Shown here: positions 16,004 to 31,356 of the stretch, one piece after another
Numbering within the stretch: the stretch's first letter is position 1
How the letters are laid out: the number at the start of each line of letters is the position of its first letter
From: a virus
Taxonomy: Duplodnaviria > Caudoviricetes
Direction: 5' to 3' (one strand)
Length of the DNA: 64,000 bases
Virus record (IMG/VR): IMGVR_UViG_3300037067_004608
Location: 59,840 to 123,839 of that record
Translations under genes and position numbers: made by a program
The notes under the pieces: model-generated
Told to the model about the DNA's origin: nothing
The model's database searches: none
The model's input: the letters and a program-made list of their open reading frames with translations, nothing else

Positions 16004-16588
16004 GTGAAACTATCTATAATAGTAGTGCTATCACTAGTATTAGCATCAGATTGCTATGGGGAGAAGTTCAGAGTAACAAACTATGATGGCCCAACAACAA
16101 AAACTGCTAGTGGGCACAGAGCCAGATATGGAATCTGTGCAGCAGATTGGAAGCATCATCCTCCAGGGACAATAATCAAGTTAGATACTGGAGAAAGACT
16201 TGTAGTAGCAGATGTAGGCCCTGCAGTAAAAGGAAGACATCATATAGATAGATTCAACCCTTCTCACAAAATATTCCCAACAGTATCAAGGGGATATGTA
16301 GTGAGTAGAGGTGGACCTCACAGGAATAGAAAAGAGATTTATCAGTCTGTTCTTAAAGGTCTTGAGAAGAAAAAGCAATTAGACAAAGAGGCAAAGAAGA
16401 GATATTATGAACAGCTCAGAGAAAAAAGTTGTGATTCTCGGAGGGGGAATAGCAGGATTACTAGCTGCCCTAGAAATGAGCGAAAGGATAAACCCAAGCC
16501 AAATAACAGTATTAGCAGCAAAGATAATGCTAGAAAAGCAGGGTCTACATTATCTACACGAAACACAAGAAACAAAAAGCCTAATTGA
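16004..16588 (+). CDS. Secreted 3D-domain protein (cell-wall binding / lytic transglycosylase-like)
   Basis: GTG after GGAGGAAAGG, signal peptide, VTNY..TASG..ICAAD..PGT..VADVGPAVKG..IDRF. Confidence 0.8.
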   Translation: MKLSIIVVLSLVLASDCYGEKFRVTNYDGPTTKTASGHRARYGICAADWKHHPPGTIIKLDTGERLVVADVGPAVKGRHHIDRFNPSHKIFPTVSRGYVVSRGGPHRNRKEIYQSVLKGLEKKKQLDKEAKKRYYEQLREKSCDSRRGNSRITSCPRNERKDKPKPNNSISSKDNARKAGSTLSTRNTRNKKPN

Positions 16589-17456
16589 AAGATTGGGAAT
16601 AAACTATAACAAGATAAAAGTAAAAGGAGCATTAGTAGACAGTGTTGGTATAATTAGGCCATTCTCAGAGAATAGTCTTTCCATACAAGAACTCATAGAT
16701 GCTGTCAAATCACACAATCTGAAGACAACTGGCATCCCTTGGTCTGGATCAGCAAGGTCTATGAATAGTATCATAGATATAAACTTCAGCAAGAAGCAGC
16801 AGTATATGCTAGATCATAGCATTGAAGAAATAACAGAAGAACTCCTAAAAGTCATAGAAGCAAATGGAGTTAAAGTAATAATTGGGATGTCAGAGTTAAT
16901 TCTACCAGGTAATAAGCGCATTCAATATGAGGCAAAGAGCCTATTAGAGTCTCTACCTTATGATTATTTAATAAGCACTATTCCTCTTATAAAGCTGGTA
17001 GAACAAATTGTGTGGTCAAGTGAAGAACTCCCGTGTGTAGATCGTGGTTATTCAAATCTAAAGTCAGCTCCGATCTATACTAGACTTGTTGAGGGTGATA
17101 AAGTTCAGCCTGATCTACTAGAATATGACTTTGTATATAACCCATATGGATCAGGCTGGTATAGAGCATCAAGAATAACTATGAACAAAAGTAGATATGT
17201 TCAATTTGAATTCTCTAGTAAATTATATGCTAATGATTTCAGAAGGATACCTGCTGAGTCAGAATTCAATTCATATGGACATATATACGCTCCAGACCCT
17301 AAGCCCGTTCTTACTATATTAGATCAGCTTGAGCGAAAGAGTATATATTGTATTGGAAGAGCGGGTAGATGGAATACTGGAGCTTTGGTGCAGCAAACAT
17401 CAAAAGAAGCAAAAAGGACAGCAGAATGTATAGCGAATCAAATCAAGGATGAATAA
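16407..17456 (+). CDS. FAD-dependent oxidoreductase (protoporphyrinogen-oxidase / UDP-galactopyranose-mutase-like fold)
   Basis: VVILGGGIAGL Rossmann motif, GLHYLH, YDYLISTIPL, CIGRAGRW. Confidence 0.82.
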   Translation: MNSSEKKVVILGGGIAGLLAALEMSERINPSQITVLAAKIMLEKQGLHYLHETQETKSLIERLGINYNKIKVKGALVDSVGIIRPFSENSLSIQELIDAVKSHNLKTTGIPWSGSARSMNSIIDINFSKKQQYMLDHSIEEITEELLKVIEANGVKVIIGMSELILPGNKRIQYEAKSLLESLPYDYLISTIPLIKLVEQIVWSSEELPCVDRGYSNLKSAPIYTRLVEGDKVQPDLLEYDFVYNPYGSGWYRASRITMNKSRYVQFEFSSKLYANDFRRIPAESEFNSYGHIYAPDPKPVLTILDQLERKSIYCIGRAGRWNTGALVQQTSKEAKRTAECIANQIKDE

Positions 17457-17459
17457 GAA

Positions 17460-18425
17460 TTGGATCAAGATAGACTAGATGAAATCTTTACTAGACAATC
17501 AGAGAACCAAGAATTATTCTCTGACTTTGATACACTTTCGGAAACAGAGAAGCAACTTTTAACAGAGAGACTTCTTCACCACCTATATTCCGAAGGTTAT
17601 TCTCTGCTTGAAAACCTTAATTGGAAACTCAACGTCTTAAAGAGGAAACCCCCTATTCTTTCTAATGTCCACATAGAGATAATAGACATGGCTAAATACA
17701 TCATAGCTTTGGCTATTCTATGGGGATTAACCCCTGAAGAGTTCTTTGAGCAATTTATGCTCAAATCCGATGTTGTAGAAGAGAGATTCGAGAATGAGAA
17801 AACAAGACTCAAAGGAGAACTTATCCTCGCAGTCGACATTGATGGAGTCATCGCAGATTGGTTTGGAGGACTTCTTCTCTACGCAGAACAGCACTTTGAG
17901 AGAGAGTTTCATAGAGAGATGCTTGACAATCACCACATATCCGCTGTCAAGGCTTTTGACCTCACAAAAGCAGATGAAGAAGAACTTAAATCAGGATTTA
18001 TTGAATCTGGAGGATATAGAAGTTTATTGTCCCTTGGAGGGCAAGAATCATTATGTAAGGCCAAAAGTCACGGTTACAAAATACTTCTTCTTACTTCCAG
18101 ACCTGAGCGCCGACACAGAAGAATCCACGGAGACACAATAGATTGGCTACATTCTAGTGGATACCAATATGATTTAATTTTCTTTGGTTTCAATAAGACA
18201 GATGTTATAGCAGAAGAAATTGAACCAGGGAAAATAACATACCTTGTTGAAGATAGAATTGATAATGCTATCGCAGTTGCTAAGCATTATCCAGAAACCA
18301 CCGTTCTTCTCATAAATCGCCCATACAATACTAACGTAACAGGTGATGAAAGATACACCAATATCAAAAGAGTCGATAATTGGGAAGACATCGATCACAT
18401 TATATTGGAGGAACACAAATGCTAA
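17460..18425 (+). CDS. All-alpha NTP pyrophosphatase (MazG/dUTPase-like) fused to HAD 5'(3')-nucleotidase
   Basis: N-term E..L...NWK...EIID..KY...K; C-term AVDIDGVIAD, LTSRP, LVEDR, NRPYN. Confidence 0.8.
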   Translation: MDQDRLDEIFTRQSENQELFSDFDTLSETEKQLLTERLLHHLYSEGYSLLENLNWKLNVLKRKPPILSNVHIEIIDMAKYIIALAILWGLTPEEFFEQFMLKSDVVEERFENEKTRLKGELILAVDIDGVIADWFGGLLLYAEQHFEREFHREMLDNHHISAVKAFDLTKADEEELKSGFIESGGYRSLLSLGGQESLCKAKSHGYKILLLTSRPERRHRRIHGDTIDWLHSSGYQYDLIFFGFNKTDVIAEEIEPGKITYLVEDRIDNAIAVAKHYPETTVLLINRPYNTNVTGDERYTNIKRVDNWEDIDHIILEEHKC

Positions 18426-19288
18426 TAAGTGGTAACGATGGTAGAGAAGAAGTTGTTCTAACTCCTAAACAAGAGAAGCTTGTTGTTTACATTCGTCGCT
18501 TATATGACACACTTGGTGCACAAGCTACAGATGCAATCTTTAGCAGATGTGGAATAAGAGCTTTGCTAAAGGAGAAGTCTCAGGTTGATACGCACGAAGA
18601 GAAAATGAAAAAAAGAAGAGAAAGGAAGAAAGCAAAAGAAGATGATGATCCAATAGCTGCTCTACTTGGAAGATTAACAGAAAGTGATCAAGAAGATGAA
18701 TGCAGCTGTATAGGGTGCAGAGCAAGGAGAAGTAGCACACACAATTATCTTTGGGTAACAGATTCTATCCAAGATTCGATAAGGCACGATATGGGAGATC
18801 TGTTTCTAAAGACTCCTCCTGCTCTTGGAAGAGAAGTCCTAGTTGGCATATTTACAAAGGCAATGGCACTTGGATATGTTCTAGGTAGAGATGAAAAGAA
18901 GATAACATCTGGAAAGTATGATGCAGAACTTGACCAGATAGATCGTCTGAATGCAGTAAATAACCTAGACAAAATGCTTGAGTCAACTGAAGGGATGATG
19001 AATATAGAAGGAGACTCTCCAATAGCACAAATGGTGTCGATGGCTTCTGAAGAGGCAAGAGAAGTCATAAAGATAATGAAGAAGTTTATCTTGAATGCAA
19101 TAATACCTCCTGGTGAGGTTCACCACATAGCTTCTTCTATCCAGCAAGACCATATGGCTAGTAAACTTCCCTCATTCTTAGGTGGAACAGGAGAACCATT
19201 CAGCATCACTGAGAGACTCGAAGAGTGCCTATCAGAAAGAGAGCAAAGCATAAAGCGTCTAAGGGATGCATTGGAGCAAAAACAATAA
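18419..19288 (+). CDS. Hypothetical protein
   Basis: GGAGG RBS; TAATG coupling to PHP gene. Confidence 0.65.
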   Translation: MLISGNDGREEVVLTPKQEKLVVYIRRLYDTLGAQATDAIFSRCGIRALLKEKSQVDTHEEKMKKRRERKKAKEDDDPIAALLGRLTESDQEDECSCIGCRARRSSTHNYLWVTDSIQDSIRHDMGDLFLKTPPALGREVLVGIFTKAMALGYVLGRDEKKITSGKYDAELDQIDRLNAVNNLDKMLESTEGMMNIEGDSPIAQMVSMASEEAREVIKIMKKFILNAIIPPGEVHHIASSIQQDHMASKLPSFLGGTGEPFSITERLEECLSEREQSIKRLRDALEQKQ

Positions 19289-20448
19289 TGGAGAACTTCG
19301 TCCACCTTCACGCTCACACAGAGTTTTCTGTTCTTGATGGGTTTGGTCTATTGACTAAGATTGTACAAGCAGCAAAGGAAAAGGGATTCCCTGCTCAGGC
19401 AATAACAGATCATGGAACAGCATCAGGAGTATTACAATTTCACAATCTATGTAGAAAGGCAGATATAAAACCTATTCTTGGTTGTGAGATGTATTTTGTT
19501 GATGACTGTAAAGTAAAACCAAGAACAAAAGATGAGATACAAGCCCTAACTTTGCCTTATGACAAAGAAACACAAAAAGTTATAAAGGCAAAGATCAAAG
19601 AAGAAGACAAGATAAAGAAAAAGAGAGACCATATAACAGTTCTTGTTAAGAATGAAATTGGATATAAGAACTTGATGAGTTTAGTCTCAGACTCTTTTTT
19701 GATAGGTTCAATAGAAGGTGGATTTGGAAGAATGATAGGCAGGGCAGATTGGAGCCTTCTGGATAAATATAGAGAAGGTCTTATACTAATGACTGCCTGC
19801 ACAAGTGGAATACTCGCTAGACCTCTTATTGATGTAAAAGAGGAAAATAGTAAAGAGTTCAAAGAAGCATGCTGTAGAGCAATGAGACTCAAAGATATGT
19901 TTGGCGATGACTTATACATAGAGATAATGCCATTAGATATGCCAGACCAAAAGAAGGCAAATGTTGGTCTTGTAGGCATAGCAGATCAGATGGGCATAAA
20001 AATGGTAGCAACAAATGATTGCCATTATATCTCTAAAGAAGATTATGGTTCTCACGATGTTCTTCTGTGTATACAGCAAAATAAAGCTCTTGATGATCCA
20101 GATAGATGGTCTTTTGATGTTAAAGACTTATATATGAAAACAAGAGAAGAAATGCGGAAGTCTTTCTTAGAGAGGCATCAAGATATACCAGAAAGAACTA
20201 TTGAGATAAGTCTCGACACAACTCTTGAAGTTGCAGAAAAATGCGATTTCACTTTTCCGCGATGCGAACCAAGACTACCAAACATAGAGATAAGTGAATA
20301 TCAAGATTATCCAGAGTTTAGAAATTGGCAGAATGATGGTGGAGTTCTAGGTCTAAAGGATAATCTGGATGAATTTGCTAGGAAAGTTATAGAGGAGAAG
20401 GAGCTTGAGAAGGTAGAAGAACTGTCCAAAACATCGAAAGGGGTATAA
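19288..20448 (+). CDS. dnaE: DNA polymerase III alpha, stand-alone N-terminal PHP domain
   Basis: FVHLHAHTEFSVLDG, AITDHG, GCEMY, H.TVL, TACTSG, ATNDCHY; ends shortly after EVAEKC...RLP. Confidence 0.92.
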   Translation: MENFVHLHAHTEFSVLDGFGLLTKIVQAAKEKGFPAQAITDHGTASGVLQFHNLCRKADIKPILGCEMYFVDDCKVKPRTKDEIQALTLPYDKETQKVIKAKIKEEDKIKKKRDHITVLVKNEIGYKNLMSLVSDSFLIGSIEGGFGRMIGRADWSLLDKYREGLILMTACTSGILARPLIDVKEENSKEFKEACCRAMRLKDMFGDDLYIEIMPLDMPDQKKANVGLVGIADQMGIKMVATNDCHYISKEDYGSHDVLLCIQQNKALDDPDRWSFDVKDLYMKTREEMRKSFLERHQDIPERTIEISLDTTLEVAEKCDFTFPRCEPRLPNIEISEYQDYPEFRNWQNDGGVLGLKDNLDEFARKVIEEKELEKVEELSKTSKGV

Positions 20449-20450
20449 TT

Positions 20451-20921
20451 ATGACAAAACAGAATTTGGGAATTGTCGGTGTGCTTCTTCTCGTAGCAGT
20501 AACAGGAACATATCTTGTTACTACAGGAATAACAAGAGCTTCTGCAGCACCAATCCAGCTTATGGAAGGGCTTACTGCTGAATGGCAAGACGGTGGCTGG
20601 AAAATAGTAAGCACCCTCATTGATCCTGGAACAAAAGAAGGAACACAGATAACTCTAACTGCAGAAGCAGTGTACTATCGTGATGGAAGCGAAGTCCCAG
20701 AGTTATCAGTATCAGAGCCAGTTATTCTTACTGTTGGCAAAAGCGAATATAAGAAAGTATGGATGACAAAAGAAGCCATACCATCAACACTAAAAATAGC
20801 TGCTGAAACAGAAGGCTCTGGTGGTGCAGAAATAACAACTGACGGTAAACTCAAATGGTGGGTTACAACTAACAATGATGGAACAGAAAGAAGTTTCACA
20901 TTTAAGTTAGTTTTGAAATAG
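20451..20921 (+). CDS. Secreted or membrane-anchored beta-rich protein
   Basis: Signal peptide ending ASA-A; beta-strand-rich body. Confidence 0.7.
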   Translation: MTKQNLGIVGVLLLVAVTGTYLVTTGITRASAAPIQLMEGLTAEWQDGGWKIVSTLIDPGTKEGTQITLTAEAVYYRDGSEVPELSVSEPVILTVGKSEYKKVWMTKEAIPSTLKIAAETEGSGGAEITTDGKLKWWVTTNNDGTERSFTFKLVLK

Positions 20922-20930
20922 GAGAAACAA

Positions 20931-21236
20931 ATGGGATTGATAATCTTCTGCCTTCTCGCTTCTGCATCAATGGGTCTTATGGCCAAGCAGAGAGACACAA
21001 TCCTTTGTGGAGACCTTCGTGATGCATTCCACAAACAAGGTGAATTAGTAGCAGATATGAGATCAATACTAATTCAGCTTCAAGCTGCGAAAAACGAAAA
21101 ATCAGAACTTGTCAGGAAACTCAAAGTTATAGCAGCATTCGATGAACTAGAAAAGTTTTCAAAGAAACATCCAGAAGAGGTAATCCTTTGGCCAGAACAG
21201 ATGTCTACGACAACAAAAGAGTTGACGCAAGAGTAA
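20931..21236 (+). CDS. Membrane-anchored coiled-coil protein
   Basis: AGGAG RBS, hydrophobic N-terminus. Confidence 0.65.
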   Translation: MGLIIFCLLASASMGLMAKQRDTILCGDLRDAFHKQGELVADMRSILIQLQAAKNEKSELVRKLKVIAAFDELEKFSKKHPEEVILWPEQMSTTTKELTQE

Positions 21237-24200
21237 CAAAAGAACAGTTAGCTGGAACTGAACGACTAAGTGTCAAACTTGGAGATGACCATTTAATTGG
21301 CGCTGGTAACTTTCTGGCAGAATTACCAGAAGATCAGAAAATAGCATATGATGACATGTTTGAATTTATGCTTTTTCATATAGAAAAAGGATGGTTCAGA
21401 AAACTAGAAGGGAGAGTCCCAGAGGATAGGCGAGAAGATTATATGAAAAGGCTCAAATTTGAGAGCTTTGAAATATATCGCCTTGGTTTCGTTAAATATG
21501 TTCTAATAGTCTGGGACATATGCCAATATGCCAGGAAAATGGAAATACCGTTCAATGCTAGAGGATCAGCTAACGCATCTCTAGCATTATATTGTCTTGA
21601 TATCATTAGCTTGGACCCTATGGTATCTGGTCCAGGTGGTGAGTCTCTTATATTCACGAGGTTTATATCTCCAGATAGGATTGACTATCCTGATATTGAT
21701 CTTGACTTTGCAGATATCAGGAGGCCAGAAATCAAGGAATACTTGAATATCAAGTATGGAGAAGAATGTGTAGCAGAGATAGGAACTTTCATAACAATGA
21801 AGGGTAAGCAATGTCTACAAGATATTGCTAGAGTAAGGAAGATTTCAAAAAGAGAAACATCTCAGGTTTCAGCACTTATTGTACAAAGATCAGGTGGAGA
21901 TGCAAGAGCGGACTTTACAATTATGGATGCTTTTACAGCATTCCCTGCCTGTATATCATACCGAGAACGATACCCAGAAGCAATAGAGGATGCTGTTAAA
22001 TTAGAAGGACAGATACGAGGGCAGGGAGTTCACGCTTCAGGAGTTGTTGTAAGCAATAGACCATTAAGAGAAGATATACCACTTGGTGTAAAGAAAGATG
22101 GAACAAAGGTAGCAGGATTCGAGATGAAAGACACAGACTCTATGGGTCTGTTAAAACTCGATATTCTTGGCCTGAGAACACTAAGGGTTATAGCAGAAAC
22201 AGTTAAGTTAGTCAAGAATAGACACGACTTCACAATTTGTACATGCCAAGGGTGCAAAAAGGTAAATGAGATAGCAGAAAAGAAGAAACTTAGGATACAG
22301 AGTTTGCTTTCTCATATGTCTACTACAGATCCAATGCGAGCATATTGGGAAGAAGAACTCAAAAATGTCAAGCCTAATCTCGATGTCTGGTTTGAGGATA
22401 TAGACTACGATGATCAGGAAGTATTCAAACTCTTCCAGGAAGGATATACTCTTGGGATATTCCAATTTGAATCTAAAGGTTTCCAAAAGCTCTCAAGACG
22501 AGCTAAACCGAGGTCGGTCATTGACCTCGCAGACCTTAATGCGCTCCATCGCCCTGGCCCAATTCGGTCAGGAATTATGCATGAGTGGTTACTTAGACGA
22601 TCAGGGAAAAGCGATAATGTCCCAGTACATCCCTTCTACGATAAAGCCACCTTGGGAACCCAAGGTCTTATGCTCTACCAAGAACAAATAATGGGAATTG
22701 TCCACGATGTAGGTGGATTTGTCTGGTCAAAGACAGATATTATGCGCAAAGCTATATCAAAGTCTGTTGGCGAAGAGTTCATGAGAAGATTCAAAGTAGA
22801 CTTTGTAGCAGGTGCTGTAGAGAGAGGTATGGCAGAAGCAGACGCTGGTAAAGTATTTGACCAGATAATATCATTTGGATCATACTCATTCAACATGGCC
22901 CACGCTTCAGCTTATGCATACTTAGCATATCGCTGTGCTTTCCTAAAAACGTATTATACAACAGAGTTTCTACTTTGCGAAATCAATTCCCTTGGCTCCA
23001 CTGATGACAAGATTCACAATCTAATACAGGAAGCAAGGCGTGTTGGAGTTCCTGTACATCTTCCTGATATAAATAGAAGCAATGTTACATACTCTCTTGG
23101 GCAAAAAAGCATGAGAGCAGGATTCAGCTCTATAAAAGGAGTTGGACCAAAAGCAGCACAAAATCTTATAGACAATCAGCCATACAAAGACTGGAATGAC
23201 TTCAGAGAAAGAATAAACAGAAGACAAGTAAATAGCGGAACAATTTCAGCTTTAGTATCTTCTGGAGCATTCAAGAGTATGTATCCAAATACAAGAGTCC
23301 TTCTTGAGAACCTCCCTGTTCTACTTGGAGGAAAGCAAGAGATGATAGATTCAATACTTGAGATAGCTCAGCACACTGATCTTGAAGCATATCCACCTTA
23401 CACTGAAAGGGAAGAAACAGAACTTCAAATGGGAGTTCTTACTCTTCCAACAGAAGTAAATCCTCTTGACTTCTATAAAGATGTCTACGAAGCTATTGAT
23501 GACAGCCTTACTATAACTCCAATATCAGAATTGGATACAGAAACAAAAGGCTCTGTAATTCTGAAGGCAGTTATGAACAGTGTTAGTTATGGCTATCGGC
23601 AAGCAGGCAAAAAGGGAGATAATGAGGATGATGTTGATGAAGAATATAAAGGTGGCGCCTATGTAAATCTTGATGATGGAACAGACTTCATAATGGGAGT
23701 ATTCAATCCTGCTGTTTATGAGAGATACAAAGTATTTCTTGAAACAGCAGAAGGGTCGGCAGTTCTTGTAAAAGCTCGGAAAGGAAAGAATTCAGACAAA
23801 ATAGACATAGATGATGTAACTGTCCTTTCAGAGTTTCAAGAGAATTTGAAAGCAGGAAAGCACTCGAAGTTTGAACAATACTTATTGAATCCTCCTCTAA
23901 AGAAATACAAAGACTTAATTGAGTCTATGAAACTTTCTTCTATTGGAGATGTTGTAGACTCTCTTCCAAATGCTAAGAAAAGTGAACAAATGCGATTTGT
24001 CGGAGTCATCTCAAATCTTAGAGAACATAGAACTAAACATGGCGGACTAATGGCATTTGTTGCACTTGATGACAATCAAGATAGTGTTGAGCTTCTCGTT
24101 TGGCCAGAGGGATATGCAAAGTTCAAAAAGCACATAGTTCTAGGAGAACCCGTAGCAATAAAAGCTCACAAACTCGATCCAATGCCAGGAGGAAAAGACT

Positions 24201-24292
24201 ACAAGCTGCAACTATCTGCAGACCAAGAAGATAAGGTGTATTCTTTATCTGCTATACAAGAATACAATGAGAGAAAGGCAAGTGGACAATAA
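21188..24292 (+). CDS. dnaE: DNA polymerase III alpha, catalytic part (palm, fingers, HhH, OB)
   Basis: RGSANASL, PDIDLDF, HASGVV, KLDILGL, GIFQFES, YQEQIM, SFNMAHA; TTG start with GAGGT RBS. Confidence 0.93.
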   Translation: MARTDVYDNKRVDARVTKEQLAGTERLSVKLGDDHLIGAGNFLAELPEDQKIAYDDMFEFMLFHIEKGWFRKLEGRVPEDRREDYMKRLKFESFEIYRLGFVKYVLIVWDICQYARKMEIPFNARGSANASLALYCLDIISLDPMVSGPGGESLIFTRFISPDRIDYPDIDLDFADIRRPEIKEYLNIKYGEECVAEIGTFITMKGKQCLQDIARVRKISKRETSQVSALIVQRSGGDARADFTIMDAFTAFPACISYRERYPEAIEDAVKLEGQIRGQGVHASGVVVSNRPLREDIPLGVKKDGTKVAGFEMKDTDSMGLLKLDILGLRTLRVIAETVKLVKNRHDFTICTCQGCKKVNEIAEKKKLRIQSLLSHMSTTDPMRAYWEEELKNVKPNLDVWFEDIDYDDQEVFKLFQEGYTLGIFQFESKGFQKLSRRAKPRSVIDLADLNALHRPGPIRSGIMHEWLLRRSGKSDNVPVHPFYDKATLGTQGLMLYQEQIMGIVHDVGGFVWSKTDIMRKAISKSVGEEFMRRFKVDFVAGAVERGMAEADAGKVFDQIISFGSYSFNMAHASAYAYLAYRCAFLKTYYTTEFLLCEINSLGSTDDKIHNLIQEARRVGVPVHLPDINRSNVTYSLGQKSMRAGFSSIKGVGPKAAQNLIDNQPYKDWNDFRERINRRQVNSGTISALVSSGAFKSMYPNTRVLLENLPVLLGGKQEMIDSILEIAQHTDLEAYPPYTEREETELQMGVLTLPTEVNPLDFYKDVYEAIDDSLTITPISELDTETKGSVILKAVMNSVSYGYRQAGKKGDNEDDVDEEYKGGAYVNLDDGTDFIMGVFNPAVYERYKVFLETAEGSAVLVKARKGKNSDKIDIDDVTVLSEFQENLKAGKHSKFEQYLLNPPLKKYKDLIESMKLSSIGDVVDSLPNAKKSEQMRFVGVISNLREHRTKHGGLMAFVALDDNQDSVELLVWPEGYAKFKKHIVLGEPVAIKAHKLDPMPGGKDYKLQLSADQEDKVYSLSAIQEYNERKASGQ

Positions 24293-24540
24293 TGAGTTCA
24301 GAGACTCCTAAACCAAGAGAGTTTCCATTACCAAATGGTTGTACTTTATTTGTTGTAGATAACAAAGAAGTTGGAGGTAGACAATATATCTCTGATGAGA
24401 TTGGAGGAGGAGTCCCTGTCTGGAATACAGCACTTGTAGATTCATCCACTTTGATAGCTGCACTAAACGTAGAGAACACAATTGAAATAGAGGAGTTACA
24501 TGAAAAAAGAAAAAATGAAGCTAGAACCGACCCTAGCTAA
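24292..24540 (+). CDS. Hypothetical protein
   Basis: TAATG coupling. Confidence 0.65.
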   Translation: MSSETPKPREFPLPNGCTLFVVDNKEVGGRQYISDEIGGGVPVWNTALVDSSTLIAALNVENTIEIEELHEKRKNEARTDPS

Positions 24541-25570
24541 TATGATGTGCCATGAAGTTCCATCTGGAGAGACTTGGGACAATAAAGTCAGAATAGATGT
24601 TGGCTGTGGACTCAAAAAAAGACCTGGATATATAGGTCTTGATAAGGATGAAATCTGCAAACCAGATATAATTCATAATATCGAATATGGAGCAATTCCA
24701 ATAGAAGATAGTGTTGTAGATATTATATATACTTCGCACACTCTTGAACATCTTGAACCAGCAGGATATATCAATGCTATGAATCAGTTCTGGAGAATAC
24801 TTAGAACTGGTGGAACAATAGAGATCGTTGTACCATATTTCAGGACAAAAGTTGCAGTTCAAGACCCTGGACACAGAATGCAATTCTGTGAGGATTCATT
24901 CAAATATCTCGATCTAACCTCAAATCCACATCAGCATTATACTATTGAAGGATTTAAGTGCAACTTTGGCATAGTAGAAAATGAAATAAGAGGCAAAGAT
25001 TTTGAACATCTTATGCTACATGTAACTCTTGTAAAGAAAGAGATGCCACTTACAGAAGTTGATGGATTTGGAATGCACACAGATAAAGATCATACAAGAG
25101 GACATTTCCATGTAGGAGAACAAGAAGAATTCATGAATACTTCTCTTGGAATACAACACGAGTTTATTGAACTTATAGAGAAATATCCTGAGTTATTCAA
25201 TGTTGCAGCTGAATGTGCACAGCTAAGGGATGTACATGCAAAAGTAGCATTTAATGTCTTAGGAGAAGATGGCTTCATACAAGAAGTCCTTAATGTTCAA
25301 CGAAAGATGATACGAGTATATGGTATGGCTCTCAGTGGAGAAGGAACTGTTGAAATATGGAAACTAAGAAAGAACATGTTCGACCTTGTGAACTATTCTA
25401 TTGCAGCTCTTGAGACTCTTGATAAAGAGATAGAGAAAGGAAAGGTAGCTTTGACAAATATGGTTCCTGTAAATGGGAATCTAAACCATATGATAGAAGC
25501 TGCTATAAGGGACTCAGGAGGGTATCCCGAAGGCACTGTCATCAACCCCAAACTACTTTCGACTAGATGA
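24500..25570 (+). CDS. Class I SAM methyltransferase fused to a C-terminal helical DUF1599-like domain
   Basis: IDVGCG, SHTLEHL, RILRTGG, QDPGH; C-term RKMIR...FDLVNYSI. Confidence 0.75.
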   Translation: MKKEKMKLEPTLANMMCHEVPSGETWDNKVRIDVGCGLKKRPGYIGLDKDEICKPDIIHNIEYGAIPIEDSVVDIIYTSHTLEHLEPAGYINAMNQFWRILRTGGTIEIVVPYFRTKVAVQDPGHRMQFCEDSFKYLDLTSNPHQHYTIEGFKCNFGIVENEIRGKDFEHLMLHVTLVKKEMPLTEVDGFGMHTDKDHTRGHFHVGEQEEFMNTSLGIQHEFIELIEKYPELFNVAAECAQLRDVHAKVAFNVLGEDGFIQEVLNVQRKMIRVYGMALSGEGTVEIWKLRKNMFDLVNYSIAALETLDKEIEKGKVALTNMVPVNGNLNHMIEAAIRDSGGYPEGTVINPKLLSTR

Positions 25571-25622: not shown

Positions 25623-25925
25623 ATGGAAATACTCAGTTTCACACATTGGGCATCAGAATATATATCTGAGAAGGGATGGCGTGTCCCAGTGCTGATCTGC
25701 CAAGGTGGGTATATCAGGATTGGTATAGAAGTTTCATCCTTTTCAAGAATGAAGACATATGATGATTACCCTGTGGATTCTATAATAAAAGCTGATACGC
25801 CAGAGAAAGAGGCTAAACTCAAGATGCTAGTAAAAGTAAATCTTGATAGATTATACACTAGTCTCAAAGCTCTACATAGGCAAGAAGAAATGAAAGACGA
25901 GGTAAGAAAACAGCTTGGATACTGA
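25623..25925 (+). CDS. Hypothetical protein
   Basis: Operon tiling. Confidence 0.55.
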   Translation: MEILSFTHWASEYISEKGWRVPVLICQGGYIRIGIEVSSFSRMKTYDDYPVDSIIKADTPEKEAKLKMLVKVNLDRLYTSLKALHRQEEMKDEVRKQLGY

Positions 25926-26682
25926 TACTCCTAAAGTTCACCTAATTTCTGCAACTCCTAATCCCCGATCAATTCTTTCATTTTGTTGGTCGATAATCAA
26001 TGAACCAGGATTCCCAATAAATACTGATATCATTGATATGACAGAACTTGGAGAAGCAATAACATTTATTGACCCTGTTTCTGGTGCTGCTGGAGAGAAT
26101 ATAGAGACCATAGTTAGAGAGTTTCTCAAATCTGGTCTTGGCGGTCCACTAGAGATGATCAACTTTGTCTTTGGCTTTGAGGGAGTAACAAGAGCTTTTA
26201 CTCACCAAATGGTAAGAACAAGACTTGCAAGTTATATGCAGCAAAGCCAGAGATTCACAGACTTCGACGGAAATCTACCTGTTAAAATGCCTGATTCCAT
26301 CAAGAGTGATAACTGTGACGACAGTAGAGCTGAAGTTCTCTGGGAATCTGCTATAGGTAAAATAGAGTTTGTTTGCAAGGAGCTAAAGGCTCTTGGAATA
26401 CCAACACAAGATATTCGTGGATTATATCCTACAAATATAAAAACGAATATCATACAATGTATTGATTACAACGCTCTGAGACGGATGATGTCTCATAGAC
26501 TTTGTACACAAGCCCAGCAAGGTGAGTGGGCACCTGTAGCAGCACAGATAAAGCAAATAGTTACAAATTATGATCCTATTCTTGGGGAAGGTCTTGTAGC
26601 TGCGTGTCAGCTAACTGGCAAATGCGCATTTGATACTGTGCTAGATAGGGAATGCCCAAATAGAGAAGCCCTCAAAAAGTAA
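25915..26682 (+). CDS. Divergent ThyX-like flavoprotein
   Basis: GVTRAFTHQMVRTRLASYMQQSQRF (RTR in place of RHR), QDIRGLYP, RLCTQAQ.EW, C-terminal Cys cluster. Confidence 0.85.
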   Translation: MDTDTPKVHLISATPNPRSILSFCWSIINEPGFPINTDIIDMTELGEAITFIDPVSGAAGENIETIVREFLKSGLGGPLEMINFVFGFEGVTRAFTHQMVRTRLASYMQQSQRFTDFDGNLPVKMPDSIKSDNCDDSRAEVLWESAIGKIEFVCKELKALGIPTQDIRGLYPTNIKTNIIQCIDYNALRRMMSHRLCTQAQQGEWAPVAAQIKQIVTNYDPILGEGLVAACQLTGKCAFDTVLDRECPNREALKK

Positions 26683-26727: not shown

Positions 26728-26761
26728 TAACGCAGTAAATATATTGAAAGGTGGAAAACAG

Positions 26762-28567
26762 ATGAAGTTTGCAAACAGACTCGTTCTTGTGTTAGCACTA
26801 ATTTTGTGCTGCACAGTGGCATTCTCTGCCACTTACTATGTGAAATGGGATTCTCCCATTAATGGTCCTGGTAATGATCTTGACCATGCATACCATACTA
26901 TTGCTGCTGCAATAACTGCTTCAAGCAACGGGGATACAATATATGTATATGGTCCTCACTCATATGCAGAATCCCTAGACTTGAATAAGCAACTGACGGT
27001 TACAGGAGTAAATGGGCCGACTATAGATGCTTCTTCCACTGGTTACGGAATTATAATCAGTGCGGCATCTAACTTACAATACTTCACTGTTCTTGGAGGA
27101 CATTTTAATGCAATAAGCATAAAGAATGCTGCAACAGGAACAATGGTAAAAGGCTGTACAGTAAATGTATACCAGTATGGTAAAGGTATCTATATTGGAT
27201 ATGACAGTGCATCAGCATCAGCATCTGCTAGAATTGACAATAACATAATCTCCGGTGGTTCCTGGAAATCAGAGGGAATATTTGGCTGTATAATTTCTTG
27301 GGGAGGTAACTCGATTATAACAAGTAACCTCATCAAGAATGGTGCTCTTGGAATATTCTTATATGGAAGTGGATCACCGTCTATTTACAATAACACAATT
27401 GTTGGATGCAACAATGTAGCAACTGGTTCAAATCCTCCTGCAACAAAAGGTGGAGGAATATACATAACTCACTATAGTTGGCCACTTATTGAAAATAACA
27501 TAATTGCCAACAATAACGCTGATTATGGTGGAGCCTATTACATAGACCTAACAGGTGGTGGCTCTGTTCAGGATATGGGGTGGAACACATTCTATGGAAA
27601 TACTTCAAATATTTCTGGATATGTTTACTACCCAACACAAGCCAATTTTGGAACAATTGGTGTAGATGGAAATAACGAAGATAATCCAGTATTTGTTGGA
27701 AGTTCTGATTACAGACTACAATATAACTCAACATGTATAGGAACTGGAAACAATAACTATGCTGGCGGAGAATGCTGCTGGAAAGATATAACAGGACTTC
27801 CTCGTGTATTGCCAGCAGCGGGAACTGTTGACAGAGGATGTTATGAAGGTGCATCTGTACTAACAAATACAAGAACTGTGGGCGACTGGGTAGAGCTAAG
27901 ATCAAAACCTGTAACTGGTAACTTTACAGATATGTTCTATGTTGAAGAGCCAAGTAGAGTTAATGGAGTAAAGATACTATCTACAAGTTCTGCAGTTGCT
28001 GGAGATTTAGCAACAATAGATGGACAGTATGTTACAAATGAAAATGAGTTATCTATTCAGCCAACAAGTGTTTCTATAACTTCTGGAAGCTCTTCAAATA
28101 TACCAGGGACTCTTGGAATGCCAAACCGATCTCTTGGAGGAATAAACATAGGACTCCTTGTTAGAGTTTGGGGAAAGATAACTTCAGCAGCAGCTGGCGT
28201 ATACCTAATAGATGATGGTTCTGGTATAAACAGCACTGTTCTCTGGTATGGAACTCCCTACAACGTTAATGACTACATAGCTGTAACAGGGGTAAGTTGT
28301 TATGGTTGTGTAAGAGCAACTTCTGTTGACTATATAACAACAATAGAAGGTCAGCAGATGATGTCTATGGGAATGTCCTCAAGTTCTCTATCTATTGATA
28401 AGAGTTCATCTAAATATGAATCCATTCTCAGATGGCAGCAGTTCTTACAGGACAACTTAGATGAGCTTGCAAAGCACGAGAAATTAACCGCTTCACAGAT
28501 AAGCTGGAAGAATCTTATTGAGATACTTATGAAGCAGGCCCAAGAGCAACTATCCAGCTATAAGTAA
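26762..28567 (+). CDS. Secreted right-handed beta-helix protein with choice-of-anchor-Q-like and C-terminal OB-like repeats
   Basis: Signal peptide, TIAAAI, NN-ladders, DYRLQYNS.CIGTG..DITGLPR..VDRGCYE, FYVEEPSR..GV, GLLVRVWGKIT..IDDGSG. Confidence 0.8.
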   Translation: MKFANRLVLVLALILCCTVAFSATYYVKWDSPINGPGNDLDHAYHTIAAAITASSNGDTIYVYGPHSYAESLDLNKQLTVTGVNGPTIDASSTGYGIIISAASNLQYFTVLGGHFNAISIKNAATGTMVKGCTVNVYQYGKGIYIGYDSASASASARIDNNIISGGSWKSEGIFGCIISWGGNSIITSNLIKNGALGIFLYGSGSPSIYNNTIVGCNNVATGSNPPATKGGGIYITHYSWPLIENNIIANNNADYGGAYYIDLTGGGSVQDMGWNTFYGNTSNISGYVYYPTQANFGTIGVDGNNEDNPVFVGSSDYRLQYNSTCIGTGNNNYAGGECCWKDITGLPRVLPAAGTVDRGCYEGASVLTNTRTVGDWVELRSKPVTGNFTDMFYVEEPSRVNGVKILSTSSAVAGDLATIDGQYVTNENELSIQPTSVSITSGSSSNIPGTLGMPNRSLGGINIGLLVRVWGKITSAAAGVYLIDDGSGINSTVLWYGTPYNVNDYIAVTGVSCYGCVRATSVDYITTIEGQQMMSMGMSSSSLSIDKSSSKYESILRWQQFLQDNLDELAKHEKLTASQISWKNLIEILMKQAQEQLSSYK

Positions 28568-28652: not shown

Positions 28653-28708
28653 TAAAAGAGTCGATACCGCTTTATTCCGAATATATACAGGGAGGAGGTG
28701 ATAACAGA

Positions 28709-28879: not shown

Positions 28880-28902
28880 TTGACGACCACCTGTATGAAG
28901 TT

Positions 28903-28930
28903 CTGGGAGGGATACTCTCCCTCCCAGTTT
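28903..28930 (+). terminator. Intrinsic terminator candidate
   Basis: CTGGGAGGGA/TCCCTCCCAG followed by TTTA. Confidence 0.55.
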
Positions 28931-28935
28931 ATAAT

Positions 28936-29190
28936 ATGATAATAATTAGTGAATCAATATTTCAATATAAAGGAAGAAAGACATTTCATTTAAGCTCTAC
29001 AGAGAGTTTAGATGAGCTGTTTGAATTTGCTAATAAGATAGGTCTGAGGCGCGAATGGTTTCAGGACAAAAGATTTCCTCACTTTGATATTTTTGGAAAC
29101 AAGATTGACATTGCAAGAGTATCAGGAGCAAAGGAAATATCTTCAAAGGAATTCATTGAAACAGCAATAAACAAAGGGAGAATACAATGA
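28936..29190 (+). CDS. DUF4031-like protein
   Basis: HL....LDELFEFA..IGLRREWFQ...PHFDI. Confidence 0.8.
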   Translation: MIIISESIFQYKGRKTFHLSSTESLDELFEFANKIGLRREWFQDKRFPHFDIFGNKIDIARVSGAKEISSKEFIETAINKGRIQ

Positions 29191-29771
29191 CTGTAACAAG
29201 AGAAGAAATACTTTCTATCCTTACTCCAGGAGATATGGTTGGTCTGTTAAGAAATTACAGACCAAAGATCAAATGGGTCCCTGTACACCCAGATGCTGTA
29301 GAGCCTAAGTATGCGCACATAAACGACTCTGGAGCAGACCTGATCTCAGTTATGGAAGGAGATGTATTTCCTGGAGAGACAGTCCTTTTCGACACAGGGC
29401 TTGTCATAGCTCTCGAAGAAGGATGGGAACTACAAGTAAGATCAAAAGGAGGTCTTGCTGCTAAGTCTATCTGGATAGCAAATAGTCCTGGAACTGTAGA
29501 TGAGGGCTATCGGGGAAGAATCTTCGCAGAAGTTCACAACGGTAAAACTTCTGAAACCATACACATAAGCAAAGGACAGAAAGTAGCTCAAGCTGTAGTA
29601 GCTATGTTCTGGCAAGCTGACTATGAGATGGAAACAGATTATCAACTTCTGACTGAAGGTATATCGGAAGGTGATAATCTTGAAGAGGTAGTGATGAATA
29701 GAGCAATTGATATCCTACCAAAGTCCAGATCAAGTAGAGGAGTTGGTGCTCTTGGAAGTACAGGAGTGTAA
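29187..29771 (+). CDS. dut: Trimeric dUTPase
   Basis: DSGADL, QVRSKGG, GTVDEGYRG, AQAVV, RGVGALGSTG. Confidence 0.93.
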   Translation: MTVTREEILSILTPGDMVGLLRNYRPKIKWVPVHPDAVEPKYAHINDSGADLISVMEGDVFPGETVLFDTGLVIALEEGWELQVRSKGGLAAKSIWIANSPGTVDEGYRGRIFAEVHNGKTSETIHISKGQKVAQAVVAMFWQADYEMETDYQLLTEGISEGDNLEEVVMNRAIDILPKSRSSRGVGALGSTGV

Positions 29772-30087
29772 AGTAGCTGCTGAATATAAGTTTGTCTGTA
29801 GTTCTTGTAACAGAGTAATTGAAGTCTGGTTGCAATATAGCAAAAGTAAGCCAGGGACATTTGACAAATACGTCAAATGTAAAGAATGCGGACAAACTTA
29901 TATGATACGATTTGAGCCAAATCGCTTCGGATGGGCTGCGTTCAAATCTGAGAATATAGAAGGCTCATATCTCTGTATAGATAACACTGAAAGTGGAGAA
30001 GAGATTCTAGTAAGACATATGCTAACTACAGAGAAAAGAGCTACACCAAAATACCCTAATGAGGATGATTGGTGGGAGATAGCATGA
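29707..30087 (+). CDS. Hypothetical Zn-ribbon protein (start uncertain)
   Basis: CSSC...CKECG. Confidence 0.55.
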   Translation: MISYQSPDQVEELVLLEVQECKVAAEYKFVCSSCNRVIEVWLQYSKSKPGTFDKYVKCKECGQTYMIRFEPNRFGWAAFKSENIEGSYLCIDNTESGEEILVRHMLTTEKRATPKYPNEDDWWEIA

Positions 30088-30242
30088 AGTGCCCATACTG
30101 TAACAGAGTAATAAGAGATATGCCAGATCATTTAAGAGCAAGCTCGAAGTGTTCAGAGAAACACAAAGCAAAGCTACGCAATGATATGAGAATCTCAAAA
30201 GAAATGTCACAGAGAGGTCTAAGCGGATATAGAGGTCAATAG
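30084..30242 (+). CDS. Small Zn-finger protein, 52 aa (not in ORF track)
   Basis: GGGAG RBS, ATGA overlap; MKCPYC...DHL....KC. Confidence 0.6.
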   Translation: MKCPYCNRVIRDMPDHLRASSKCSEKHKAKLRNDMRISKEMSQRGLSGYRGQ

Positions 30243-30246
30243 CTAG

Positions 30247-31356
30247 ATGTCAAAACTACGAGTAGCATTGTGTAATGGACTATATATTTTGGGAGGACCA
30301 ATTTCTTACACAAGATGTGTAAACGAGACTCTAAAGGATTCAGAGATTATATCTCCAGATATGTTCGTTTGGAAATCAAAATACAAACTGATCAATGGGG
30401 CAAATAATATAGCAAAGCTGAATCCAAGAGAGATTGCTGACTTTCTAAACTCTAGTTATGACTTAGTGTGGTTTACCTTCGCTAGTCAAGAGAAAAGACA
30501 TACATTCAAGAGTGAACCTCCTCCTGTAATGCAAGTAATGTCCCTCCTCGACATACCATTCATTATGACTATCCATAGAGATGATGAGATAACAAATCTC
30601 AAAAACCGTGGATGGAGTCCATGGGAATGGCAGCAGGCAGGATTAAAGAATCTATCAGGAATAATAGTAATAAGTCAGCAACTTGAAAGGAAAGTGAAAG
30701 ACCTTCATATAGTTGATGATAATAAGGTATTCAGGACTCCTCTTGTTTACCCAGACCCTATACGAACTTCTGATCACAGATCAAAAAGAATAACTTCACT
30801 TTCAAGACTGGCATCAGACAAAAGGCAGGAAAAAGTCGCTGAATTAGCAGACTATATTTCCAAGGATATAGAAGTGTATATACATGGTAGGACTAATCTG
30901 TTCAATCATAGCTTCTATCAGCCTTGGATTGATAAGGGTAGAACTGTCTGGCCCGGAGAGTTCTACCCTTCAGATGTTTGGAATATTCTATCAGATACAG
31001 AGATAGGAGCTGATTTTGATGCTCAAGAGATAGGAGATAAACTTCAAGGCGTAACTCTTGAGTTTATGCTTTCTGGAGCAGTTCCTTTGCTTATAGAAAC
31101 TACTGGAATAAGCGAATTGAGATGGCCAACTCTTATACACGAAAAGAACTGTATTAAGATTTGGGAAGATGAGCTTGTATCAGAAGTAGGTCTAAAAAGG
31201 GCAGCAGGAAGAGTCGATGGATTTTTTGAAAATCCAGATAGACTAGAAGAGATTAGACAAAATAACTACAAACTTGTCGAACAGTTTAGACCTCCTGTGG
31301 TTCGACCAATTCTTGAAGATGTGCTAATGAGGATAGTCAATGGAAATAACAGATAA
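30247..31356 (+). CDS. GT-B fold glycosyltransferase
   Basis: GGP N-term, MTIH, IVIS, LSRLASDKR, TLEFMLSGAVP. Confidence 0.75.
   Translation: MSKLRVALCNGLYILGGPISYTRCVNETLKDSEIISPDMFVWKSKYKLINGANNIAKLNPREIADFLNSSYDLVWFTFASQEKRHTFKSEPPPVMQVMSLLDIPFIMTIHRDDEITNLKNRGWSPWEWQQAGLKNLSGIIVISQQLERKVKDLHIVDDNKVFRTPLVYPDPIRTSDHRSKRITSLSRLASDKRQEKVAELADYISKDIEVYIHGRTNLFNHSFYQPWIDKGRTVWPGEFYPSDVWNILSDTEIGADFDAQEIGDKLQGVTLEFMLSGAVPLLIETTGISELRWPTLIHEKNCIKIWEDELVSEVGLKRAAGRVDGFFENPDRLEEIRQNNYKLVEQFRPPVVRPILEDVLMRIVNGNNR

Follow-up and report, generated by a model that had tools for sequence, protein, structure and literature searches.

Does the replication and nucleotide region of an uncultured 124-kb phage hold a pathway for a modified DNA base, and which of its genes belong together? 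In the window, the 64,000-nucleotide stretch analysed here (bases 59840–123839 of a 123,839-bp IMG/VR virus record), the original prediction had taken five genes at 16407–31356, an FAD oxidoreductase, a pyrophosphatase–nucleotidase fusion, a methyltransferase, a divergent ThyX, and a glycosyltransferase, as one dispersed base-modification set. This was supported in part: the gene identities stood, except for one proposed domain, and a recurrent module emerged, but the genes were not one co-occurring set, as only three of the five were found beyond the phage's own lineage. A classical hydroxymethylase is indeed absent, as no PF00303 (ThyA-family) gene was found in the phage genome. The polymerase does lie within the set, split over two genes, a PHP-domain part of DNA polymerase III alpha (19225–20448; Pfam PHP, E 1.3e-39; phrog_405) and a DnaE-type core (21188–24292; DNA_pol3_alpha, finger, HHH_6, and OB domains).

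A flavoprotein and a fused nucleotide hydrolase form a fixed gene pair

The first gene of the set (16407–17456; all genes described here are on the plus strand) encodes a flavoprotein, as predicted, which profile and fold matches refined to the UDP-galactopyranose mutase (UGM)/PPOX-like type. The protein has a GxGxxG motif at residues 12–17 and gave weak Rossmann matches in Pfam (E about 2e-3) and no match to Pfam GLF. A profile of its 32-member family matched UGMs in the PDB (E 9e-12), and the best Foldseek match of its AF2 model (pLDDT 88) was the T. cruzi UGM (4dsh; E 1e-17, TM 0.71). Retained as in UGMs are the Rossmann motif, a GR...W C-terminal motif, and the 'FYR' Arg that binds the diphosphate, which is invariant in the family. 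Unlike true UGMs, the family is short (250–350 aa), has a reduced helical domain, and is always partnered with the nucleotide-hydrolase fusion and not with glycan genes.

This fusion (17460–18425) joins a dimeric-dUTPase-like all-alpha NTP pyrophosphatase (residues about 1–120) to an NT5C-type HAD 5'-deoxynucleotidase (about 122–318), in agreement with the original prediction. The NT5C match (E 3.6e-9) exceeds the Pfam cut-off; the N-terminal 120 residues had no direct Pfam match, and PF08761 (dUTPase_2) and PF06941 were found in homologs that share about 30% identity. The metal and nucleophile residues E45, E73, D76, D126, and D128 are invariant, and both domains keep their catalytic residues. 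The fusion family comprises 452 clusters at E<=1e-30. As the phage has a separate trimeric dUTPase (29187–29771; dut, E 3.9e-27; motifs 3 and 5 seen in the sequence), the dimeric-type domain of the fusion need not serve dUTP.

Among 79 IMG/VR contigs holding the fusion, 66 also had a 16407-like gene, which in 61 of these 66 lay directly upstream on the same strand within 200 bp, often with an overlap of 4–12 bp, and one natural protein (P0205) joins both parts (hhalign 98.7%). In other lineages, the module is found next to RNR, dCMP deaminase, DnaE, short-chain dehydrogenase (SDR), and PF07659 genes, the last named 'Nucleotide modification associated domain 1' in Pfam. The methyltransferase, the 30247 glycosyltransferase, and two heptose-type genes recurred only in the phage's own lineage. 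Close relatives are all colinear genome-wide, and finding the genes together within the lineage therefore says little, which is a point for the view that the five genes are unrelated auxiliaries sharing the early/middle block of a colinear phage lineage, as is the failure of two of the five to recur elsewhere. However, 16407 is paired with 17460, and the pair is linked to ThyX, in many unrelated lineages whose polymerases differ. This view is already contradicted for three genes and would stand only for the methyltransferase, glycosyltransferase, and heptose genes; as an account of the whole set it is very improbable.

Since the flavoprotein is UGM-like, a role in nucleotide-sugar metabolism is a live rival. 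The pair would then act on UDP- or dTDP-sugars (ring mutase, diphosphate cleavage, phosphatase) together with SDR/epimerase proteins and glycosyltransferases, for an unusual glycan or for pyrimidines harvested from the host's large UDP-sugar pool, and the ThyX genes would be mere neighbours in the nucleotide block. Besides the UGM matches and the invariant 'FYR' Arg, the genes beside the pair are in line with such a role (RmlD/epimerase-like genes, 23 loci; short-chain dehydrogenases, 20 loci), and so are nearby glycosyltransferase clusters in four other records (G002–G005), with GT-B genes 6–10 kb from the ThyX-like genes, a row of glycosyltransferase, ThyX, GDP-mannose-dehydratase-like, and GHMP kinase genes in G009, and the heptose genes of this phage. 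Yet the flavoprotein family is shorter than true UGMs and lacks the GLF match, dUTPase_2 and NT5C are nucleotide and not sugar enzymes, the pair is always in a replication/nucleotide block (DnaE in 48 loci; RNR, dCMP deaminase), and most loci have no glycosyltransferase within 10 kb of it. We regard the nucleotide-sugar role as rather improbable.

A ThyX paralog without the stacking residues accompanies the pair

The gene at 25915–26682 had been called a divergent ThyX, which its Thy1 match (E 2.5e-28) and its loss of active-site residues confirmed; its TIGR02170 score (74 bits) is under the cut-off of 87.9. With T. maritima-type ThyX it shares the Thy1 fold and, as a member of type B, the residues Q75, R78, R80, S88, R90, R147, and R174, among them the Arg and Ser residues of the dUMP site, whereas the residue table shows the exchanges H53L, H59M, H79T, and Y91F. 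In ThyX, His53 and Tyr91 form a hydrogen bond with one another and stack on the flavin and on the pterin of the folate (PMC11940539). Every divergent ThyX type lacks both residues, and types D and E have lost R78, R80, and R174 as well. The second ThyX of the phage (40853–41473; Thy1, E 6.5e-63) is canonical and has both His53 and the complete RHR...S...SxR motif.

A ThyX-family gene was present within 10 kb in 55 fusion loci, nearly all of divergent types. In eight genomes, namely this phage (G000), its relative G001, and six more records with the module, a canonical-type ThyX is present as well, which points to a function of the module beyond plain dTMP synthesis. On the other hand, 10 of the 18 long module-bearing records have no TS-family gene besides the divergent ThyX, and the same holds for the cultured phages Kyle, XcP1, and Sadboi, in which it might be nothing more than the thymidylate synthase; this occurrence as the only such gene in many complete phages counts against a DNA-modifying module. 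It fits ordinary pool upkeep, in which the divergent ThyX would be a flavin thymidylate synthase of a phage type, its active site altered but its dUMP-binding residues retained, the UGM-like protein its reductase or helper, and the fusion an enzyme that clears dUTP and trims dNMP, while the glycosyltransferase, methyltransferase, and heptose genes would serve to modify proteins of the virion or the envelope of the host and not DNA. We consider this unlikely on balance, though with a real chance of being correct: besides the eight genomes with both ThyX forms, His53 and Tyr91 were lost together, the arginine losses of types D and E go further still, a pyrophosphatase with a nucleotidase attached would waste dUMP, a trimeric dUTPase is already there, and no UGM-like enzyme is known as a flavin reductase.

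A precedent for a ThyX with another product is PolB of polyoxin biosynthesis, a ThyX paralog that acts on UMP and dUMP and represents a second ThyX copy recruited for a C5-modified uracil nucleotide (PMC5954106). PolB itself belongs to a Streptomyces antibiotic pathway.

The sugar and methyl transfer genes are specific to the lineage

The methyltransferase (24500–25570) was correctly recognised as such; it is a class I SAM enzyme (Methyltransf_11, E 1.2e-4; phrog_6636, E 1.8e-14) of the small-molecule class and not the DNA-methylase class, a point that suits pool upkeep. It is 59% conserved in G001 and has an uncharacterised C-terminal domain of 170 residues; the DUF1599-like tail proposed for this part was not supported (no hmmsearch match; hhalign probability 2.6%).

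The predicted GT-B at 30247–31356 gave a weak Pfam match (E 1.4e-3), and its AF2 model (pLDDT 82) identified it as a GT-B/GT4 glycosyltransferase, with Foldseek matches including PimA, BshA, MshA, and T4 alpha-glucosyltransferase (AGT). The DNA glycosyltransferases made by RB69, DLP3, and RL38J1 are reported to resemble the same GT4 structures (PMC13326640). The family is very small (9 homolog clusters), and its closest member outside the lineage lies in an early region that has no ThyX, again in line with pool upkeep.

Two further sugar genes lie outside 16407–31356. An HddA-like (heptose-7-phosphate kinase-like) GHMP sugar kinase (14678–15658; Pfam GHMP_kinases_N and _C), 60% identical in G001, has HddA as its best NCBIfam match (E 6e-45; 154 bits, cut-off 600), and a GmhA-like SIS-domain sugar-phosphate isomerase (42427–42999; SIS_2) matches TIGR00441 gmhA (E 1.1e-25, 90 bits against 209). 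These best matches resemble the GDP-D-glycero-alpha-D-manno-heptose pathway (GmhA, HddA, GmhB, HddC), but both genes are far under the equivalog cut-offs, and no dedicated GmhB was identified in this phage. In G001, an HddC-like NTP_transferase (sugar-1-P nucleotidyltransferase) gene follows the uracil-DNA glycosylase (UDG) gene, which in our phage is located at 11299–11988 (Pfam UDG, E 1.2e-34); the nucleotidyltransferase gene was not found in this phage genome. The incomplete heptose pathway counts against the reading preferred below, as does the fact that the methyltransferase, glycosyltransferase, and heptose genes do not accompany the module outside the lineage.

The intervening genes include a lineage-specific protein (18380–19288) that is 36% identical in G001, had no family match in profile searches, and in the IMG/VR loci comparison had homologs only in the phage's own lineage. 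A small ORF adjoining the ThyX paralog upstream (25623–25925), also without a family match in profile searches, is kept in G001, L015, L016, L018, and L107, and the variable parallel beta-helix gene downstream (26744–28567; NosD and beta-helix repeat matches) is present in L015 and L107 and missing from G001, L016, and L018. A DUF4031 protein (28936–29190; Pfam, E 3.9e-15) precedes the dUTPase, and two conserved proteins after the glycosyltransferase (31340–32526; 45% and 57% identical in G001) gave no family match in profile searches.

Comparison with known modification systems

In T4, 5-hydroxymethyl-dC is made by the gp56 dCTPase, gp42, the gp1 kinase, and alpha- and beta-glucosyltransferases. 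Our phage shares the logic of pool-clearing pyrophosphatase, TS-type enzyme, and GT-B, but lacks both a ThyA-fold enzyme and a dNMP kinase. The hmU and uracil phages SPO1, SP8, and PBS2 exclude thymine by a dTTPase/dUTPase and a dTMP nucleotidase, so that a triphosphatase and then a 5'-nucleotidase fully remove the canonical pyrimidine nucleotide; these are separate proteins, in phages that either have a ThyA-type dUMP hydroxymethylase or lack a synthase. The fusion unites the same two steps in one protein; unlike those phages, ours retains a canonical ThyX, dUTPase, and UDG, all confirmed by profile matches.

A further parallel is the glycosylated 5-hydroxycytosine pathway of RB69, DLP3, and RL38J1, in which a TS-type enzyme, a ThyA homolog with a D169N signature, uses flavin chemistry to place a hydroxyl handle on a pyrimidine mononucleotide (PMC13326640). 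Shared features are a TS-type flavin enzyme, a dNTP pyrophosphatase, an SIS isomerase, an HAD phosphatase, a sugar kinase, and GT4-like glycosyltransferases in a replication block, and the RL38J1 pathway even includes a UGM (PMC13326640). In contrast, the candidate here is a ThyX paralog, the extra nucleotide kinase was not found, and the sugar genes point to heptose instead of arabinose or galactose, with the nucleotidyltransferase missing.

A possible pyrimidine-altering module with a sugar layer

Our preferred reading, which we put somewhat short of an even chance, is a conserved module that alters pyrimidine nucleotides, combined with a lineage-specific sugar layer. Points in its favour include the nucleotide-type neighbours of the module in other lineages, the GT-B genes near ThyX-like genes in G002–G005, and the likeness of the GT-B model to the GT4 structures named for RB69, DLP3, and RL38J1. 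We infer that the ThyX paralog would bind dUMP and that its flavin would put a group other than the folate methyl on the pyrimidine. The translationally coupled fusion would take the competing canonical pyrimidine dNTP to dNMP and on to the nucleoside. The role envisaged for the UGM-like enzyme is to provide, or to process, an intermediate bound to flavin N5 or to a nucleotide. Decoration of the resulting base after replication could then fall to the GT-B, the methyltransferase of small-molecule type, and the two heptose-type enzymes (HddA-like and GmhA-like). As the canonical ThyX still makes dTMP, any replacement would be partial.

No thymidylate-kinase-family gene or small P-loop kinase, as a dedicated dNMP kinase, was found in this phage, which counts against the preferred reading and favours pool upkeep. 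Likewise, the phage shows strong avoidance of palindromic restriction sites (median observed/expected ratio of 6-mers 0.70, compared to 0.96 in T4), which suits pool upkeep and argues against a fully shielding modification. As M6 and PaMx11, which have hypermodified T, also avoid restriction sites, partial modification of the DNA may nevertheless be compatible with this avoidance.

The UGM-like flavoprotein, the pyrophosphatase–nucleotidase fusion, and the divergent ThyX are thus a recurrent, widespread, and uncharacterised phage module, and in this lineage the three proteins may, together with the lineage-specific sugar enzymes, make an unknown modified DNA base.

Co-occurrence of the genes across phages

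A conserved, uncharacterised phage nucleotide module exists. It comprises a gene for a flavoprotein resembling UDP-galactopyranose mutase (UGM), the adjoining gene for a pyrophosphatase–nucleotidase fusion, and a ThyX-family gene, which in our phage (genome G000) are 16407, 17460, and the divergent ThyX paralog 25915, named by their starts in the window. A scan of IMG/VR with an alignment of the fusion, whose family comprises 452 clusters (E<=1e-30), yielded 79 loci. Iterated profiles revealed a 16407-like gene in 66 of these, at most 200 bp upstream of the fusion and on the same strand in 61 of the 66, frequently with an overlap of a few bases, and a ThyX-family gene was found within 10 kb of the fusion in 55 of the 79 loci. 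On three distant contigs with different polymerases, the fusion has a homolog of 16407 and a gene of the Thy1 family beside it. The relative G001 and the contig loci L015, L016, L018, and L107 have the same gene order as G000, but this co-occurrence within the lineage carries little weight because the genomes are colinear throughout. Mere coincidence, which the distant contigs speak against, is in our view very improbable. We found no paper describing such a three-part module.

Recurrence is confined to the phage's own lineage for the methyltransferase 24500, the glycosyltransferase 30247 (whose family has nine clusters only), the GHMP kinase, the SIS protein, and 18380. The expectation of the original prediction that its genes co-occur in relatives was thus borne out beyond the lineage for 16407, 17460, and ThyX, and within the lineage only for 24500 and 30247. 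The gene 18380 was rejected as the conserved neighbor of the fusion, as that neighbor is the 16407 family.

Elsewhere, the pair is neighbored by DnaE, RNR, DnaB, dCMP deaminase, RecA, and nucleases, and in 12 loci by PF07659, named "Nucleotide modification associated domain 1" in Pfam. We consider ordinary upkeep of thymidylate or the nucleotide pool by the module rather unlikely. Among 18 long records, six had a canonical-type and a divergent ThyX, ten had divergent ThyX only, and none had ThyA. Altogether, eight genomes, including G000 and G001, retain both kinds of ThyX, which speaks against redundancy of the divergent copy.

Sugar-related genes are also found near the pair, namely an RmlD/epimerase-like gene in 23 loci and short-chain dehydrogenases in 20 loci. 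GT1-family genes occur in 7 of the 18 records, and the module-bearing records G002-G005 have a glycosyltransferase cluster 6-10 kb past the ThyX-like pair. In a further fusion-bearing phage (L109, G009:C1:5000-17000, positions 933-8511), the gene for a canonical-type ThyX stands in one row with those for a GT2, a GT1, a GDP-mannose-4,6-dehydratase-like enzyme, and a GHMP kinase, which makes G009 a second case of ThyX genes amid sugar genes. A role of the module in nucleotide-sugar metabolism could draw on these neighbors and appears unlikely to us.

The conserved pair 16407 and 17460

The gene 16407 had been read as an FAD oxidoreductase, and the flavoprotein type was correct but can be given more precisely. 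The protein begins with a GxGxxG motif, and its Pfam Rossmann matches are weak. An alignment of 32 family members matched UDP-galactopyranose mutases of the PDB (E 9e-12) outside the Rossmann part, including the "FYR" arginine. With the AlphaFold2 model (pLDDT 88), the UGM of T. cruzi was the best Foldseek match (E 1e-17, TM 0.71), followed by protoporphyrinogen and amine oxidases, and a language-model atlas was concordant. The Pfam family GLF (PF03275) did not match 16407, the family members have 250-350 residues vs about 380-510 in the matched UGM chains of the PDB, and the full-size uridine-binding helical domain that marks membership in the UGM family is missing. Judging from profile and model, 16407 is UGM-like in fold and profile, and a mutase activity is predicted at most. 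A tblastn search of cultured phages gave no match to 16407.

The assignment of 17460 as a fusion of a probable NTP-pyrophosphatase with a HAD nucleotidase held. The HAD part matched NT5C (PF06941) with 37.2 bits, above the cut-off of 24.8, and D126, D128, K246, and D265, which include the DxD nucleophile motif, are invariant. The N-terminal part (residues 1-125) had no direct Pfam match, but full-length homologs with 28-32% identity have both PF08761 (dUTPase_2) and PF06941. The acidic residues E45, E73, and D76 of this part, invariant in 32 sequences, are presumably equivalent to the metal ligands of the C. jejuni dUTPase. Single-sequence searches of the PDB with 16407, 17460, and 24500 gave nothing useful. 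The "HAD" and "oxidoreductase" genes of the phages Kyle and XcP1 were ruled out as orthologs of 17460 and 16407, as there was no BLAST similarity, and genes of Gordonia phages matched 17460 weakly and in the HAD domain only.

In the natural triple fusion P0205 (649 aa), a 16407-like domain and the pyrophosphatase-HAD fusion are joined in one protein. The glycines of the GxGxxG motif are substituted in P0205 (ILWSWISW), which points either to a degenerate flavin site or to a read-through artefact in the protein call.

The ThyX paralog 25915 and its relatives

The assignment of 25915 as a divergent ThyX also held. Its Thy1 domain (PF02511) is clear (E 2.5e-28, 99.6 bits vs a cut-off of 24.8), but the score for the thyX equivalog TIGR02170 (74 bits) is below the cut-off of 87.9. 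The ThyX motif RHRxxSxxxxSxR reads RTR..S....S.R in 25915, with the central histidine replaced by threonine, and the wider divergent clade has glutamine or threonine at this position. In 25915 and all 13 of 13 full-length subfamily members, His53 is exchanged for Leu and Tyr91 for Phe, whereas the canonical ThyX 40853 has both His53 and Tyr91; in comparison to this canonical copy, 25915 and its close relatives also have the exchanges His59 to Met and His79 to Thr. E58, Q75, R78, R80, S88, R90, R147, and R174 are retained in the group. In ThyX, the reduced flavin and the folate pterin are both stacking partners of His53, which also hydrogen-bonds Tyr91, and R78 stabilizes the flavin N1 (PMC11940539). 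As the group keeps the residues listed and has lost His53 and Tyr91, the nucleotide site of 25915 seems to be preserved, whereas the pair that gates folate and flavin has been lost. Identical losses run through a large clade, to which the only ThyX of each of the phages Kyle, XcP1, and Sadboi belongs.

The ThyX proteins near the pair differ in their active sites. Seven copies are canonical, type B, which includes 25915, retains S88 and R90, type C has S88 exchanged for Gly and Tyr91 for Asp, and types D and E form tandem pairs, with R78, R80, and R174 missing in type D. In a ThyX tree, 25915 fell within the type-B clade (support 0.85), types D and E were each monophyletic, and the rooting was uninformative. 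On 16 other phage contigs, degenerate ThyX-like genes overlap in tandem pairs (L036 9991-11509, L037 15834-17361, L039, L041, L043, L045, L048, L050, L054-L056, L067, L078, L079, L081, and L084). Type E retains a QRAR motif and R174. The tandem D and E proteins could assemble into a mixed tetramer in which the active sites are composite.

Methyltransferase, glycosyltransferase, and putative heptose genes

The gene set of the original prediction was largely confirmed, with the exception of the DUF1599-like tail assigned to 24500. This protein is a class I SAM methyltransferase of the Methyltransf_11 type with a 170-residue C-terminal part, and for the supposed DUF1599/NMAD1 tail (residues about 220-356) there was no Pfam match, an hmmsearch with a 12-member DUF1599 cluster was empty, and hhalign gave a probability of 2.6%.

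The GT-B fold of 30247 was substantiated by an AlphaFold2 model (pLDDT 82) with two Rossmann domains, which matched PimA (TM 0.70), BshA (0.68-0.69), T4 AGT (0.68), and also MshA. Glyco_transf_4 scored 19.1 bits, below the cut-off of 28.5, and the 30247 profile matched nothing in the PDB.

The HddA-like GHMP kinase 14678 (154 bits vs an equivalog cut-off of 600) and the GmhA-like SIS isomerase 42427 (90 bits vs 209) both lie outside the span given in the original prediction. Their best matches, at the superfamily level, suggest a heptose pathway, although both scores fall well short of the equivalog thresholds. In G001, a sugar-1-phosphate nucleotidyltransferase gene (NTP_transferase, E 1.4e-34) directly follows the UDG gene (G001:C1:95321-96010). 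G000 has no such nucleotidyltransferase, also not at the same junction (window 11988/11989), and the heptose pathway would therefore lack its activation step there.

State of the DNA

The trimeric dUTPase 29187, the UDG 11299, and the canonical ThyX 40853, on which the original prediction had based its argument against uracil-DNA, are all present. No classical hydroxymethylase had been recognized, in agreement with the absence of the ThyA family (PF00303) from G000, G001, and 18 further module-bearing records. G000 has no gene of the thymidylate kinase family (PF02223) and no small P-loop kinase, with Walker-A matches only in DnaB, RecA, and other known families.

Palindromic restriction sites are very strongly avoided in both whole genomes. 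GTAC occurs 74 times in G000 (261 expected) and 8 times in G001 (255 expected). TCTAGA (39 copies expected in G000), GAGCTC, CTCGAG, TTCGAA, and TTTAAA are missing altogether from G000 and G001, and 40-46% of the 6-mer palindromes are under half of expectation. The median observed/expected ratio of 6-mer palindromes was 0.70 for G000 and 0.96 for T4. As the phages M6 (0.16) and PaMx11 (0.62), which have hypermodified thymidine, avoid such sites too, the avoidance argues only against a full, T4-like shielding of the DNA.

Genome setting

The G000 record comprises 123,839 bp, of which the window covers bases 59840-123839, and is rated complete by CheckV. Window positions ~1-43,000 on the plus strand form a replication and nucleotide block with DnaB, primase, UDG, a split DnaE polymerase, RecA, NUDIX, RNase H, SbcCD, an HD protein, a pyrimidine-dimer glycosylase, ThyX, and RuvC, and the structural genes are on the minus strand. 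No cultured phage matched the region in a DNA megablast. The early region upstream (genome 48-60 kb) encodes a PolX-like nucleotidyltransferase with Pol beta thumb and palm, an SPFH/Band7 protein, and an ATP-dependent DNA ligase (L025 59-691, 4217-5128, and 7849-8934; genome 48-57 kb), and no sugar genes were found among its ORFs.

ARAGORN detected a phage-encoded tmRNA gene (window 13988-14336, plus strand) with the tag peptide ANTDTLSSIAGRNADMEVMAA, flanked by the replication genes and the gene for the GHMP kinase. The DnaE polymerase is encoded in two pieces (window 19225-24292), one gene for the PHP part and another for the core, and two small ORFs lie in the gap. At this split, relatives (L016 3589-8341; L018 1962-4356; L020 13436-20440) have HNH or DUF559 endonuclease genes and inteins, and mobile elements therefore seem to have fragmented the DnaE gene. 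Directly after the ThyX paralog, still inside the replication block, a parallel, NosD-like beta-helix protein of 607 aa is encoded (window 26744-28567, plus strand), which is also present in L015 and L107 and missing from G001, L016, and L018. The first 182 bases of 16407 are shared with a 242-aa ORF (window 15860-16588, plus strand). As this ORF has weak matches alone (3D domain, E 7e-4) and G001 has no counterpart, its status as a gene over the whole length is questionable.

Discussion

Of the proposed modified-pyrimidine pathway, a real and conserved nucleotide module remains, given the recurrent pair and its linkage to ThyX, while 24500 and 30247 do not recur with this module beyond the lineage. 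Judging from the sequences, we tentatively favor the view that the module alters pyrimidine nucleotides.

The closest paradigm is found in RB69, DLP3, and RL38J1, whose glycosyl-5-hydroxycytosine pathway employs a TS homolog that uses flavin, together with a dCTPase, a SIS isomerase, a HAD protein, a kinase, and GT4-like transferases, and in RL38J1 a UGM as well (PMC13326640). G000, by comparison, has a TS-type enzyme of the ThyX fold, lacks the kinase, and differs in its sugar genes. G000 also differs from the T4, SPO1, and RB69 pathways, as it has neither a ThyA-fold hydroxymethylase or hydroxylase nor a dedicated dNMP kinase, and from the 5-hmdU-derived hypermodification of thymidine (5-HMUDK and aGPT-Pplase), as it has neither a P-loop DNA kinase nor a ThyA-type dUMP hydroxymethylase. 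To our knowledge, every pre-replicative pyrimidine modification of phages that has been established by experiment begins with a ThyA-fold enzyme. The idea that the divergent ThyX is the dUMP hydroxymethylase of thymidine-hypermodifying phages was rejected, as M6 and PaMx11 have ThyA-type enzymes and no Thy1 gene. That ThyX paralogs are able to adopt other C5 chemistry is shown by PolB of polyoxin synthesis (PMC5954106).

In its most specific form, the proposal would be that in a large, so far uncultured phage group, the UGM-like flavoprotein, the fusion, and the histidine-less ThyX make a new 5-substituted deoxyuridine or another pyrimidine via flavin-N5 chemistry without a ThyA-type enzyme, and that in the G000 lineage this product then receives a heptose-derived sugar and an O-methyl group on the DNA. 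This full sequence of steps is quite doubtful. If it were true, pyrimidine-modification chemistry would have arisen a second time and independently, through a ThyX-fold enzyme whose fixed partner is a mutase-like flavoprotein, hundreds of protein clusters would join the list of DNA-modification enzymes, and there would be a bearing on restriction and CRISPR evasion, phage therapy, and sequencing artefacts in viromes. If the module instead served pool upkeep or nucleotide-sugar scavenging, the pair would still be an abundant, uncharacterised phage gene pair, and phage "ThyX" annotations would still span at least four active-site types.
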